A stretch of DNA of 13,170 nucleotides from Candidatus Sericytochromatia bacterium. Lineage in GTDB: Bacteria > Cyanobacteriota > Sericytochromatia > S15B-MN24 > UBA4093. The translations under genes were made by a program, and so were the position numbers. Every line of letters starts with the position of its first letter. The first letter of the stretch is position 1. The notes under the pieces are model-generated. The model saw only the letters and a list, made by a program, of their open reading frames with translations. It ran no database searches and was not told the DNA's origin. Below, in pieces: positions 312-8,791 of this stretch. Where the stretch lies: contig JAKFBU010000046.1 in NCBI GenBank assembly GCA_036676985.1, positions 1-13,170 of the forward strand. Reading direction: 5' to 3'.

Positions 312-340
312 TTGACCTGACAATCATATTATCGTAATAT
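312..340 (+). promoter_or_regulatory. sigma70-type promoter for the ncRNA-RT transcript
   Basis: TTGACC (312-317), 17-nt spacer, TAATAT (335-340). Predicted TSS is about 347. Confidence 0.75.
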
Positions 341-404
341 TGATCTGCCTGTAAGGAGCTTCCTTAAAGGAGCTGCCTTGAGGGGGAAAGGTAACCTTCA
401 ACAA

Positions 405-410
405 AGTCAA
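405..410 (-). promoter_or_regulatory. -35 half (TTGACT) of the split junction promoter
   Basis: Plus-strand AGTCAA at 405-410. On the minus strand it lies 4 nt before the predicted end of the repeat. Confidence 0.7.
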
Positions 411-504
411 GTTCACCAAGAACTTGATGAGTACCAGAAGCAGCCGCCACCACGGCGAACTGCCGACGAGAAGGGTGTGCATCCAGCACGCGTCTACCTG
501 TTCC

Positions 505-513
505 ATTCTATCA
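505..513 (-). promoter_or_regulatory. Extended -10 half (TGaTAGAAT) of the split junction promoter
   Basis: Plus-strand ATTCTATCA at 505-513. In the genome the hexamer 17 nt upstream is CCCTGG, which is not a -35. Confidence 0.7.
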
Positions 514-636
514 GTCCAGCCAGGCGGCCAGGGAACATTGTAACCTGGGCAAGTCTTGAGCGCGGGGGGACATTTGACGGGTAGTCGCCGCCTGACGCCC
601 TTGCCCCCCGCACTGACTTTCTCGAGCAATAATTAA

Positions 637-1926
637 ATGTCAAACGATTCATCACATGTGGGGTATCCTGACTGGTTCAGACCTAAGGGCTACCTCCATT
701 TTGATCTACCGATCCGTAACCCAAGGCAGATTAACCAGTATTTAAGCCATGTAAGTGACGACCGATGGGTATCAAGCCATGACTTTCTGCCTTTTATCCT
801 CAACGAGCAAAAAGTTCACCGTAAAAAACCGAGACCAGATAATAGCCATACTAAGCTTCGGCCAATTATGTATGCAAGCCATGCCGATGCTTTAATTTAT
901 TCGTATTACAGCAGCATACTTTCTGACAAATACGAAGACCTAATACGCGATACCAATACTGCCATTACATCTATAGCTTACCGTCGGTTTCCGGATAAAA
1001 AGAGTAATATTACATTCGCAAAAGAAGCTTTTGACTTCATTATGCAAGAGGGAAACTGCATTGCCTTAGCATATGATGTGACAGATTTCTTCGGCACTCT
1101 TAACCATGAAATTCTTAAGGCTAATTGGATTCGCGTCCTAGGGCACCAACATGAAAAGTTGCCTGCTGATCACTATGCCGTATATCGATCGTTAGCAAAA
1201 TTTTGCTTTGTCGATCGAAAGGCACTCATGAATGCTCTAGGCGTCACAAAGAAGGACCAGCTTCGCAAGGATCGGTTTTGTGATATATCAGAATTTCGAA
1301 CCCTAGTTCGAAATAAACACCGCCTAATTAATAAGAATCCTAATACCGATAAAGGGATTCCCCAGGGCTCATCTGTGAGCGCCGTCCTTTCTAACATTTA
1401 CATGATCGATTTTGATGAGCGACTTTCCGATTTAGCTTGCCAATTGAACGCATTTTATCGCCGCTATTGTGACGACATTATATTTGTATGCAAACCGGAG
1501 GTGGAATGGATTGCGACTCAAGCAATCAATCACGAACTTCTCCACCTTAATTTAAATGTAAACGGAGAAAAGAAGGACGTATCTGAATTTGCAATCTCAA
1601 ATGGCCGTCAGCAACTTATTGCGCAGACGAAACCACTTCAATATCTAGGCTTTGTGTTCGATGGTGAAAAGATTGTGATTCGCTCACCATCAATGGCAAG
1701 ATATTACCGAAAGCTCAAGGCAGGTGTTCGCGCTGCCAGGAATGAGAAGAAATTTAACAGATTACAACGGATGAATAAAAAATTACTCTATGGACGATAT
1801 TCATCTCTTGGAAAAAAGAACTTCATTAGTTATGTTAAGCGCGCCAGCAATGAAATGGCTTCTGTTGAAATGCTGAGGCAAATTCGCAAGCATTGGCCCG
1901 TATTGCTAAGAGAAATGGATAAGTAG
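637..1926 (+). CDS. drt2: Defence-associated reverse transcriptase, DRT type 2 (UG2)-like, 429 aa
   Basis: RT motifs: RPIMYASHADALIY, AYDVTDFF, GIPQGSSVSAVLSNIYM, catalytic YRRYCDD (YCDD at 1465-1476), LQYLGFVF. The N-terminal WFRPKGYLHFD, the size, the YCDD variant and the upstream ncRNA fit Drt2. No maturase or endonuclease domain and no retron VTG motif. Confidence 0.88.
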   Translation: MSNDSSHVGYPDWFRPKGYLHFDLPIRNPRQINQYLSHVSDDRWVSSHDFLPFILNEQKVHRKKPRPDNSHTKLRPIMYASHADALIYSYYSSILSDKYEDLIRDTNTAITSIAYRRFPDKKSNITFAKEAFDFIMQEGNCIALAYDVTDFFGTLNHEILKANWIRVLGHQHEKLPADHYAVYRSLAKFCFVDRKALMNALGVTKKDQLRKDRFCDISEFRTLVRNKHRLINKNPNTDKGIPQGSSVSAVLSNIYMIDFDERLSDLACQLNAFYRRYCDDIIFVCKPEVEWIATQAINHELLHLNLNVNGEKKDVSEFAISNGRQQLIAQTKPLQYLGFVFDGEKIVIRSPSMARYYRKLKAGVRAARNEKKFNRLQRMNKKLLYGRYSSLGKKNFISYVKRASNEMASVEMLRQIRKHWPVLLREMDK

Positions 1927-2388: not shown

Positions 2389-2417
2389 AGATAAATCAGA
2401 CCTTTTTTATCTTGTTT
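2389..2417. promoter_or_regulatory. Candidate Rrf2-family operator overlapping the suf TSS
   Basis: AT-rich imperfect palindromes: AGATAAA-N10-TTTATCT (2389-2412) and AAATCAGAC-N7-ATCTTGTTT (2393-2417), just downstream of the -10. Confidence 0.5.
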
Positions 2418-2471
2418 CACCCTCGCCCGGCCGGTAAGGTCGGAGAGGGGCAACGCCTTTCAGGAGCCACC

Positions 2472-4678
<2,207 letters not shown>

Positions 4679-6016
4679 ATGAAGCCCGCGATCGTCGAAC
4701 TCGTCCAGGACCCCACGGTGGCGAGCCTCCTGCGCACGCGGCCCGAGCTCCCCGAGACGGGGCTCATGAGCGTCGCCATGCTGCGCCGCGAGGCCGTCGA
4801 TCGCCTGAGCGCCCTTCCGATGCCGGGCATCAAGGACGAGGAGTGGCGCTTCACCAACCTCGCGCCCCTCAAGGAGCTCACGTTCCAGGCCCCCGAGCGC
4901 AAGCCCGAGGCCGTGACGCTCGAGTCCATCGAGCGCTTCGTCCTGCCCGAGGCCAAGGCGAGCCGCCTGGTCTTCGTGAACGGCGCCTACGCCCCGCACC
5001 TGTCGGACGTGAGCGCCCTGGGCGCGGGCATCGTCGTCAAGAACCTCGCGGACGCGGGCGACGAGGCCAAGCTGCTCGACAGCCACCTGGCGCGCCATGC
5101 GGCCTTCCGGGACGACGTCTTCCTGGCCCTCAACACGGCCTTCCTCGGGGACGGCGCGCTCGTGCACCTGGGCCGCGAACGGGTCGCCCCGGCCCCCTTG
5201 CACCTCCTGTTCGTGGCGGTGCCCGGCGCCGAGACCGTCGTCGTCCACCCGCGTGTGCTGCTCGTGGCCGAGGCCATGAGCGAGGCCATCGTGGTCGAGG
5301 ACTACGTGAGCCTGGCGGACGGCGTCACCCTCACCAACGCCGTGACGGAGCTCTTCCTGGCGGACGACGCCCGGATCAAGCACGTGCGCCTGCAGCGCGA
5401 GAGCCGCCAGAGCTACCATCTCGGCCGGTCGGCCGCGGTGCTCGGCCGCGACAGCTCGTACCACTCGCACGCGGTGACGCTCGGCGCGGCCTTCAGCCGG
5501 CACGAGCCCACGGTGCTCCAGACGGCCGAGGGCACGGACGCCAGCCTCAACGGCCTGGTGCTCCTGTCGGGCGAGCAGTTCGCGGACACCCACAGCGTCA
5601 TCGACCACGCCAAGCCCCACGGCACGAGCAACCAGCTGCACAAGTGCGTCCTGGGCGGCACGTCGCGCGGGGTCTTCAACGGCAAGATCCTGGTGCGGCA
5701 GCACGCGTCCCAGACCAACTCGGCCCAGGCCAACCGCAACTTGCTGCTCACGCAGAAGGCGCGGATCGATACCAAGCCCCAGCTCGAGATCTTCAACGAG
5801 GACGTGCGCTGCTCGCACGGCGCCACCGTCGGCCAGATCGAGCCCGAGGAGATCTTCTACCTGCGCAGCCGCGGCCTCTCGGAGGCCGATGCCCGCCACC
5901 TGCTCATCTTCGCGTTCGCGGCCGAGGTCCTCGACGGCCTGCCGGTGCCGTCCCTCAAGGACGACCTGCGCGACCACGCCCTGGAGCAGATGGCGTCGGC
6001 CAAGGAAGGACGGTAG
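4679..6016 (+). CDS. sufD: Fe-S assembly protein SufD
   Basis: EEWRFTNL, GVFNGKILV, IDTKPQLEIFNEDVRCSHGATVG, FYLRSRG, plus position in the operon. Confidence 0.95.
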   Translation: MKPAIVELVQDPTVASLLRTRPELPETGLMSVAMLRREAVDRLSALPMPGIKDEEWRFTNLAPLKELTFQAPERKPEAVTLESIERFVLPEAKASRLVFVNGAYAPHLSDVSALGAGIVVKNLADAGDEAKLLDSHLARHAAFRDDVFLALNTAFLGDGALVHLGRERVAPAPLHLLFVAVPGAETVVVHPRVLLVAEAMSEAIVVEDYVSLADGVTLTNAVTELFLADDARIKHVRLQRESRQSYHLGRSAAVLGRDSSYHSHAVTLGAAFSRHEPTVLQTAEGTDASLNGLVLLSGEQFADTHSVIDHAKPHGTSNQLHKCVLGGTSRGVFNGKILVRQHASQTNSAQANRNLLLTQKARIDTKPQLEIFNEDVRCSHGATVGQIEPEEIFYLRSRGLSEADARHLLIFAFAAEVLDGLPVPSLKDDLRDHALEQMASAKEGR

Positions 6017-6019
6017 GAC

Positions 6020-7269
<1,250 letters not shown>

Positions 7270-7270
<1 letters not shown>

Positions 7271-7749
7271 TGAGCTCTCCTAGTCAGCTCTACCAGGAAG
7301 TGATCCTGGAGCACAACAAGAAGCCCCGCAACTACGGCCTCCTCGCGGAGTCCAACCGGCGCGCCGAGGGTCGCAACCCGCTCTGCGGCGACCACATCAC
7401 GTTGACGCTCAACGTCGCGGACGACAAGATCGACCAGATCGGCTTCGAGGGCCACAGCTGCGCCATCTGCAAGGCGTCCAGCTCGATGATGACGAGCACG
7501 GTGAAGGGCAAGACCGTCACCGAGGCCGAGGAGCTGGTGCAGCAGTTCCGCGACATGGCCACCGGCAAGCTGAACGCCGAGTCGCCCGAGAGCCGGCTGG
7601 GCCGCCTCAAGGTGTTCTCGGGCGTGGCCGGGCTGCCCTCGCGGGTCAAGTGCGCGGTGCTGCCCTGGCACACGCTGCATGCCGCCCTCCACAACGAAGA
7701 GGCCGTGAGCACCGAGGGCAGCGCCGACCCGGTCGCCAAGCAAGGTTAA
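7270..7749 (+). CDS. sufU: SufU-type sulfur transfer protein (NifU_N family)
   Basis: LYQEVILEH..KPRNYG, NPLCGD, CAICKASSSMM, RVKCAVLPW. TAATG overlap with sufS. Confidence 0.93.
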
Positions 7750-7762
7750 GAAGGATTCGAGT

Positions 7763-8320
7763 ATGCCGAAGATCGCCGAGATCGAGATGACGCCCAACCC
7801 CAACGCGCGGAAGTTCGTCCTGAAGGACCCGCTGACCTACGGGGTCGCCCGCTCGTACGACAACGCCACGGTGGCGCAGTCGGACGCGCTGGCGACGGCG
7901 CTGTTCGCGATCCCGCACGTCTCCAACGTCTACTACCTCGACCGCTACCTGACGGTCACGCAGGACGGCGGCGCCGATTGGAACGACCTCTTGCGCGAGG
8001 TGGCCGTGCCCATCCGGGCGGCCGAGGCCGCGACGGCTCCGGCCGTGCCCCAGACCGCCCAGGACGTCTCGCACCTGGCCTCGGACCCCGAGTCGGGCGC
8101 GCTGCTGGTCCAGATCAACGAGATCCTCGACAAGCAGATCCGGCCCGCGCTCATGATGGACGGCGGCGGCCTGGAGATCGTGGGACTCGAGGGCAAGGAG
8201 CTGCGGATCCACTACCACGGCGCCTGCGGCACCTGCCCCAGCGCCACCTTCGGCACCCTGATGGCGATCGAGAACCTGGTGCGCAGCGTGGACCCCGAGC
8301 TCATGGTGGTGTCGGTCTAA
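7763..8320 (+). CDS. Nfu/NifU-family Fe-S carrier (Nfu_N plus NifU C-terminal domain)
   Basis: N-terminal TPNPNARKF, and C-terminal IRPALMMDGGG...GACGTCPSA with a CXXC motif. Confidence 0.9.
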   Translation: MPKIAEIEMTPNPNARKFVLKDPLTYGVARSYDNATVAQSDALATALFAIPHVSNVYYLDRYLTVTQDGGADWNDLLREVAVPIRAAEAATAPAVPQTAQDVSHLASDPESGALLVQINEILDKQIRPALMMDGGGLEIVGLEGKELRIHYHGACGTCPSATFGTLMAIENLVRSVDPELMVVSV

Positions 8321-8338
8321 CCTGGAAAGGAAGGCGAC

Positions 8339-8791
8339 ATGAAGCTGACGAAGGCCTCCGAGTACGGGATCCTGACGATGGTCCACCTGGCCAAGCAGCC
8401 GCCTGGTCAGCTGTCGGACATCGCCCGCATCGCCGAGGACGAGCGCATCCCCGCGTCGTTCCTGGGCAAGCTCGTGACGACGCTCGTCAAGGCGGGGCTC
8501 ATCCGCTCGCAGCGGGGCTCGCAGGGCGGCATCGAGCTGGCCCGTCCGGCCTCGGACATCACGCTCCGGCATGTCATCGAGGCGACCGAGGGCGAGATCG
8601 CGGTCAACGAGTGCACGTCGAGTTCGGCCTATGCCTGCTTCCGCAGCGGCTGCGCCGTGCAGGGCGCGCTGCGCTCGGCGCAGAACGCCTTCTTGGAAGC
8701 GCTGGAAGGGTTCACGCTGGAGGGGTTGGCGCAGCTGGACCGGTACCAGCCGCAGGCGGTGACGCTGACGCCACTGATGAGCGAGCGGTAA
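8339..8791 (+). CDS. Rrf2-family transcriptional regulator with three Cys (probable Fe-S sensor)
   Basis: MKLTKASEYG, IPASFLGK, LVKAGLIRSQRGSQGGIELARP..ITL..VIEA.EG, and a C-X7-C-X4-C cluster. SD-like GGAAGG upstream. Confidence 0.92.
   Translation: MKLTKASEYGILTMVHLAKQPPGQLSDIARIAEDERIPASFLGKLVTTLVKAGLIRSQRGSQGGIELARPASDITLRHVIEATEGEIAVNECTSSSAYACFRSGCAVQGALRSAQNAFLEALEGFTLEGLAQLDRYQPQAVTLTPLMSER

Follow-up and report, generated by a model that had tools for sequence, protein, structure and literature searches.

The closest described relative of the locus studied here is the DRT2 system of Klebsiella pneumoniae (Wilkinson et al., 2024; Tang et al., 2024). There, a lone reverse transcriptase (RT) gene follows a non-coding RNA (ncRNA) of about 280 nt that has its own promoter, the length of the RNA being given as 280-281 nt (PMC12039810; bioRxiv 10.1101/2024.05.08.593200). 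The RT copies a 120-nt template of this ncRNA into concatemeric cDNA by repeated template jumping, the jump relying on a conserved ACA triplet at either end of the template (PMC12039810; bioRxiv 10.1101/2024.05.08.593200). The homology between these triplets is needed for defence (bioRxiv 10.1101/2024.05.08.593200). The template contains TATAAT and TTGACA hexamers that are out of order and 91 bp apart, and that come to lie at 17 bp across adjacent repeats; the repeats encode a stop-free toxic open reading frame, neo, antisense to the ncRNA (PMC12039810; bioRxiv 10.1101/2024.05.08.593200). A GFP reporter was active solely in the concatemerised arrangement, a template hairpin pairs with the -10 region, and the elongating state has a six-pair duplex (PMC12039810).

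Two further systems offer partial parallels. Both DRT2 papers cite as an analogy the junction promoters of circular insertion sequences of the IS911 type, in which -35 and -10 elements located on opposite ends of the element form a strong promoter once joined. There, however, the ends are joined in DNA circles made by a transposase, whereas in the present case it would be the copying of an RNA into tandem repeats by an RT that joins them. In DRT10 and telomerase-like synthesis, an RT likewise copies an ncRNA template repeatedly into tandem DNA, but the repeats are short, priming is by protein, the effector is separate, and neither a promoter nor a reading frame is created.

Here, we analyse a window of 13,170 nucleotides (positions 1 to 13,170 of contig JAKFBU010000046.1, assembly GCA_036676985.1) from Candidatus Sericytochromatia bacterium. 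An earlier note on this DNA had drawn attention to positions 405-513, where it saw a promoter whose -10 and -35 elements lie in the wrong order in the genome and unite only across a cDNA junction. We find it very probable that the neo promoter of a DRT2 (UG2) anti-phage system is encoded at 405-513 as two separate halves. This reading is not new in kind, because the Klebsiella DRT2 papers describe this very arrangement.

Results

The Reverse Transcriptase and Its Genomic Setting

Two PADLOC models assigned the RT to Drt2 (PDLC03757, E 5.8e-139; PDLC02173, E 7.2e-128), the next family being RT_UG17 (1.9e-25), and the Pfam model RVT_1 scored 44.3 bits with a cut-off of 29.6. The protein matches Drt2 and not the DRT10/telomerase-like families. 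Its catalytic YxDD motif is intact in the translation, as YCDD. When the whole 4.68-Mb assembly was searched, this was the single Drt2 match (E 1.5e-140), and none of nine other genomes of the same taxonomic family contained one.

The RT is distant from all homologues that were retrieved. In a protein search its best non-self matches were 47 and 45% identical, both being proteins from short assemblies, and the rest were at most 43% identical. Drt2 homologues were found at 30 loci among genome contigs (best 41% identity), at 80 loci among metagenome contigs (best 42%), and in 28 plasmid records (best 39%); the homologous loci compared at the DNA level were all at most 42% identical in the RT. 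Grouping with the RTs of ACA-type loci, to which it is about 40% identical, was not observed. A quick maximum-likelihood tree of 89 RTs placed it on a long branch (0.93) and outside the clade with all 12 ACA-type entries (support 98), its placement being resolved only to that extent.

The DRT2 unit is embedded in about 2.1 kb of low-GC DNA (39-50% GC, about 250-2400) with flanks of 60-68% GC. Directly downstream, from 2412 to 8791, is a suf iron-sulphur operon with sufB, sufC, sufD and sufS, NifU-like genes and an Rrf2 regulator. The ORFs scanned included no further defence gene and no integrase or transposase; the absence of a transposase from the window is a further difference from the IS911-type junctions. 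The approximately 480 nt between the RT stop and sufB (1927-2411) are of intermediate GC content and contain no listed ORF of 60 codons or more, and nothing was identified in them apart from a chance Rfam match (see below).

In public sequence data, the locus was found in contigs of soil runs, one of which (X1) may be the source of this DNA, and of two groundwater runs (X3 and X4) of one other study. The ncRNA is identical in X3 and X4, and the sole difference is a G>A change at 1377 within the RT gene. Over the ncRNA the public contigs show no joints, loose ends or variants; they are assembled contigs only, and as such uninformative on the existence of a junction. A soil RNA library contained a 155-nt contig that matches 358-512 exactly, the rest of 200-2000, RT gene included, being uncovered. 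This contig is consistent with an abundant small RNA that corresponds to the 5' part of the ncRNA, and proves neither transcription nor strand. Reading its two ends (358 and 512) as branch points of the assembly graph was rejected as uninterpretable at a depth of 4.7.

Architecture of the Non-coding RNA

A predicted ncRNA of about 280 nt is located directly upstream of the RT gene on the same strand, with its own promoter (Table 1). Both of its ends are predicted, and 290 nt separate its start from the ATG of the RT. Homologous loci have a similar promoter just 5' of the 5' hairpin, as judged by eye.

Table 1. Coordinates of the features of the DRT2 locus (positions in the window)
Feature	Position	Strand	Basis or remark
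ncRNA promoter, sigma-70-like (TTGACC, 17 nt, TAATAT)	312..340	plus	Consensus scan; start predicted near 347
DRT2 ncRNA (predicted), about 283 nt	347..629	plus	Both ends predicted; 3' end placed at GCAA 626-629 by analogy with GCUA/GCAA tails of homologues
5' handle hairpin	348..384	plus	Fold of 347-400; core stem 352-362 with 369-380
Template hairpin, left arm	381..393	plus	Pairs with 495-509, including four bases of the -10 complement
Candidate ACA-1 (template 5' end)	401..403	plus	1 nt from the -35 complement
Template region proposed in the earlier note, 123 nt	401..523	plus	Length supported, exact ends not; 391-513 equally possible
-35 hexamer of the rebuilt neo promoter, TTGACT	405..410	minus	Reverse complement of 405-410; 224 nt before the RT start
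First in-frame ATG after the predicted start site (near 498)	480..482	minus	Reading of the frame; no convincing Shine-Dalgarno sequence (by eye)
Extended -10, TGaTAGAAT (TGATAGAAT)	505..513	minus	Hexamer 510-505, TG 513-512; 324 nt before the RT start
Pseudoknot strand 1, CAGGCGGC	521..528	plus	Core GGCGG 523-527
Small hairpin CCAGG/CCUGG, loop with second ACA (535-537)	528..548	plus	Fold, z -2.07
Linker CUUGAG	555..560	plus	Pairing possible with CUCGAG 621-626, close to the 3' end of the RNA; fold of 553-630
3'-terminal long hairpin	562..610	plus	G run 564-569 with C run 604-609
Pseudoknot strand 2, GCCGCCUG	587..594	plus	Loop CCGCC 588-592, in the apical loop of the 3' hairpin
Stop-free frame, 101 codons, across the whole ncRNA; contains the neo frame	324..629	minus	Stop at 324-326
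Drt2 reverse transcriptase, 429 aa, YCDD	637..1926	plus	PADLOC and Pfam models

The predicted architecture shares with the Klebsiella RNA a 5' handle hairpin, a template hairpin that involves the -10 region, and a 3' hairpin whose loop takes part in a pseudoknot. The 5' hairpin is no more stable than shuffled sequences (z -0.61), and homologues have a hairpin at the same place. The fold of 381-510, which includes the template hairpin, reaches -45.2 kcal/mol (z -3.64), and none of 200 shuffles was equally stable.

The homologues form a pseudoknot between a strand located 3-5 nt past the acceptor triplet and the apical loop of their 3'-terminal hairpin. The matching strands of the present RNA could form eight pairs, the strongest such pairing when compared with the homologues. 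Strand 1 begins 10 nt after the -10 complement, or 13 nt after it if the GCGGC core is considered, and in 11 of 13 homologues, those in which a matching strand was found, it begins 17-19 nt after it; the -10 thus sits 4-8 nt nearer to the pseudoknot than in those 11, and the same shift is seen relative to the Klebsiella RNA. Five covarying strands were found among the homologues (GUGGCC, GCGGC, CCGGC, GGGUGG and UCGGUA), each with a matching loop. Shuffled loops offer a 5-bp complement in 26.5% of cases, so that the case for the pseudoknot rests on position and covariation. These results come from an anchored search, which was used in place of an unrestricted search for the longest complement that had returned mostly local hairpins.

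Other parts of the RNA differ from what is described for Klebsiella. The linker after the 5' hairpin is longer here, and there is one hairpin between the pseudoknot strand and the terminal hairpin where the Klebsiella RNA has two. By analogy, the CUUGAG/CUCGAG pairing near the 3' end may resemble the six-pair duplex of the Klebsiella elongating state.

A direct repeat was also observed: CUUGAG followed by a G run is found at 377-386, after the 5' hairpin, and again at 555-569, where the 3' hairpin has its base. Since there is a single C run (604-609) with which either G run could pair, the RNA may adopt two alternative conformations.

Neither Rfam nor a covariance model matched the ncRNA. The Rfam scan of 1-2500 returned no family match, only the chance SCARNA6 match at 2373-2421 (E 0.51). 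A covariance model named R1, made from 13 homologous 3' domains, had no match on the ncRNA at E up to 10, its best match being a spurious one inside the RT gene (E 7.3). This result says little and is no evidence against homology, because R1 is a weak model with nine base pairs and a poor MAFFT alignment.

The Split Promoter and the Neo Frame

On the minus strand the extended -10 comes before the -35, as the reverse complements of both elements confirm, and they are separated by 94 bases (411-504) where the earlier note had counted about 95. In this order the chromosome does not contain a promoter. There is no -35-like hexamer 16-18 nt upstream of the -10 in the genomic arrangement, and a consensus scan of 1-2500 listed no minus-strand promoter at 405-513.

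Joining 401 to 523, as had been proposed, generates a unit of 123 nt in which the spacer measures 17 nt and exactly one frame lacks stops. Our recomputation gave the same spacers as those claimed before, including the 14 and 20 nt that result from units of 120 and 126 nt. When units of 113, 123, 134, 141 and 147 nt were compared, a junction-spanning promoter was formed only at 123 nt (10 of 12 consensus matches), the others having 6-8 of 12. It is thus reasonable to support the length of 123 nt, as it is the sole promoter-building length, is divisible by three, and agrees with a pseudoknot that sets the template end at or before about 523; the single frame that runs stop-free through the junction is to be read with this in mind, since the length itself was derived from the promoter. 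In Klebsiella, too, the out-of-order elements reach 17 bp only across the repeat junction, and the unit is divisible by three with a stop-free, hydrophobic antisense frame.

The point of joining is a different matter. Whichever template start from 388 to 404 is chosen, a 123-nt unit has identical hexamers, a 17-nt spacer and one open frame, and the frame is kept in every register because the minus strand is stop-free from 629 to 324. As these registers are equivalent, the sequence fixes the length of the unit and not the join point.

By analogy with the published model, the ncRNA would be bound by the Drt2 RT and reverse-transcribed into head-to-tail cDNA. Once this cDNA is made double-stranded, each junction would set TTGACT 17 bp upstream of TGaTAGAAT. 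The repeats would then be transcribed antisense from a start near 498, and the transcripts would encode the stop-free hydrophobic repeat of 41 residues (Neo), with arrest of the cell as the predicted outcome. Rolling-circle reverse transcription, triggering by phage and toxicity are likewise attributed to this locus by analogy, and may apply to it.

The Neo repeat has a mean hydropathy of 0.7, with a range of 0.4-1.5 in homologues. Its first in-frame ATG lies about 22 nt after the -10 and is not preceded by a clear ribosome-binding site, whereas the distance is 13 nt in Klebsiella. A second in-frame ATG (506-504, minus strand) overlaps the -10 and would be usable only in later repeats. Our frame script relied on an arbitrary join 3 nt ahead of the -10, and for this reason 12 of 34 loci, among them 11 of the ACA type, came out without an open frame. 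The position of the neo frame relative to the -35 was considered as a constraint and dropped, as two different frames occur among homologues.

A terminator-like element was flagged on the minus strand at 407-427, where a T-rich run follows an 8-pair hairpin. The -35 hexamer overlaps the 3' arm of this hairpin, which corresponds to a stem-loop of the template on the plus strand and would recur in each repeat of a neo transcript.

Conservation of the Split Promoter

It had been proposed that conservation of both hexamers be checked in homologous ncRNAs, and we find that the arrangement is conserved. The survey covered 82 loci with distinct 450-nt upstream regions, taken from the 30 genome and 80 metagenome loci, and considered pairs that are spaced by 17 nt and leave an open frame in a unit of 90-150 nt divisible by three. 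Permuted promoters with at least 11 of 12 consensus matches were present in the antisense orientation in 38/82 loci, compared to 2/82 in the sense orientation and 0/82 after shuffling. Perfect pairs (12 of 12) were found in 16/82, 2/82 and 0/82, respectively. In most homologues the -35 is located 218-235 nt and the -10 305-339 nt before the RT start, and the distances of 224 and 324 nt at this locus fall within these ranges.

Could the hexamers be chance matches in a structured RNA gene, with no role as a promoter? Their 10 of 12 matches are modest, and many homologues have 11-12; at the level of at least 10 of 12, 57/82 loci score in antisense, but so do 11/82 in sense and 9/82 after shuffling. 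We examined this with 1000 dinucleotide shuffles of 187-636, in which a permuted pair was counted if it had 10 or more of 12 matches and a 17-nt spacer, with an open frame and a unit length that is a multiple of three. Any pair of that quality appeared in 38 shuffles, a pair with TGn before the -10 in 2, and a pair with the -35 at a homologue-like distance from the RT start in 6. Such low frequencies, at a Drt2 locus where this arrangement is expected, make a chance origin extremely unlikely.

The elements of the present copy have a character of their own. They read TTGACT and TAGAAT preceded by TGn, whereas the Klebsiella template is described with TTGACA and TATAAT. The TGn was found before the -10 in 8 of 34 loci examined, this one included; as just 7 of 33 homologues have it, it is a peculiarity of this copy.

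TGn-extended -10 elements can function without a -35 in sigma-70 promoters, and some -35-independent antisense transcription might therefore take place from the chromosome. Taken further, the extended -10 could be an ordinary antisense promoter that already fires in the genome, TTGACT adding little. Control would then lie in concatenation of the frame and not in assembly of the promoter, an idea that suits the rarity of TGn among homologues and the fact that a genomic antisense transcript would encode a single unit, ending at the stop at 324-326. We regard this as unlikely. TTGACT is found at the -35 position of homologues, and at exactly 17 nt at the sole in-frame length; TAGAAT is moreover imperfect as a -10. 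In Klebsiella, the non-concatemerised arrangement was inactive in the reporter (PMC12039810).

The Repeat Junction and the Missing ACA Acceptor

The length of 123 nt proposed in the earlier note stands on the promoter and the frame, but its exact join 401|523 does not. No exact identity of 3 nt or more, which could play the role of ACA-2, exists between the donor and acceptor sides at 123-nt spacing, the best being GU (391-392 and 514-515) and a single C. Exact microhomology pairs do occur at 113, 133, 134, 141, 147, 148, 149 and 160 nt, and the units of 113, 134, 141 and 147 nt that they define do not form a promoter. The join 401|523 is therefore a prediction, and 391|513 is equally possible, the same promoter arising from either. 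With G·T wobble permitted, GGCGG 523-527 could accommodate the cDNA copy of AACAA 400-404, which corresponds to the join 401|523; this match does not single out 123 nt, because runs of equal length occur at 113 and 127 nt.

Unlike the Klebsiella RNA, this copy thus lacks an ACA-2 at the acceptor and has GCG (524-526) at the 123-nt position. The candidate ACA-1 is also closer to the -35 complement, at 1 nt instead of the 3 nt found in Klebsiella and in the ACA-type homologues.

A pair of ACA triplets does bracket part of the RNA, at a length that is not divisible by three. If the ACA rule of the Klebsiella clade applied, the repeat unit would be the 134 nt between ACA motifs (401-534), and the copy would be defective or act without Neo. 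Its basis is AACA at 400-403 and 534-537, the only ACA pair and the sole exact 4-nt match with the canonical motif, and extraction from ACA to ACA recovers the unit in 13 of 97 homologous loci. Such a unit would, however, place the hexamers 28 nt apart with at most 6 of 12 promoter matches, and stops would close all frames. Its second ACA (535-537) falls in a hairpin loop on the 3' side of the pseudoknot strand, whereas homologues always have the acceptor on the 5' side, 3-5 nt away from that strand. An intact RT gene with its YCDD motif, and an ncRNA that is identical in the X3 and X4 contigs of another study, do not suggest a defective copy. In addition, other DRT2 loci use other junction words. 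Taken together, we consider the 134-nt unit very unlikely, and retain a unit of 123 nt.

Those 13 of 97 loci obey the Klebsiella rule in its strict form, in which the unit runs from ACA to ACA and has 6 nt at the -35 end and 11 nt at the -10 end. Others (for example L041, L008, L036, L005, L058, L077 and L093) carry a permuted promoter that is perfect or nearly so, but their junction words are not ACA; in RNA sense these are, for instance, GUUU in L041, AG in L008 and the 7-nt UUUAACU in L036. As many DRT2 loci keep the promoter with other junction words, the ACA rule belongs to one clade and is not family-wide. These loci share with the present one a permuted TTGAC(A/T), 17 nt, TATAAT-like promoter, an open frame and the lack of an ACA junction. 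They differ from it in that most keep 3-7 nt of exact identity, compared to at most 2 nt here, and none is close (at most 42% identity).

The longest exact repeat between the flanks of the template is a 7-nt direct repeat, GTAACCT, at 391-397 and 540-546. Its spacing of 149 nt is not divisible by three, and its second copy is located 3' of the pseudoknot strand.

Discussion

The published mechanism, the permuted promoter in homologues, and an RT that is both distant from its best matches and placed outside the ACA-type clade make this locus a divergent new member of DRT2. The earlier note had read 405-513 as a switch that keeps a toxic gene silent until double-stranded concatemers form. By analogy with the Klebsiella model, such a role finds support in the Drt2 RT, in hexamers located at the distances seen in homologues, and in the antisense enrichment of the permuted promoter at homologous loci. 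It does not add new biology, since it is already established for DRT2 that promoter and gene come into being only through reverse transcription.

The value of the locus is that of a natural variant, from a GC-rich soil bacterium and an isolated branch of RTs. It keeps the 17-nt promoter arithmetic and the open frame, and has lost the ACA acceptor that is essential in Klebsiella. Its TGn extension bears on how tightly a split promoter is silenced in the genomic arrangement, and its junction bears on what defines the jump, sequence homology or the geometry of RNA and protein.

With regard to the latter, we tentatively put forward one explanation, which is possible but doubtful. Template jumping in this lineage may take place without a shared trinucleotide, the acceptor being set by RNA architecture and abutting or overlapping the pseudoknot strand at 521-528. 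The nascent cDNA end would re-anneal through at most two exact pairs or through G·T wobble (cDNA TGT on GCG 524-526). The halves of the promoter would have slid by 4-8 nt relative to the pseudoknot in the course of evolution, with the summed spacer still being 17 nt. If this were true, repeat addition in DRT2 would need no homology of the ACA type, and the length of the unit would be measured by the ribonucleoprotein.
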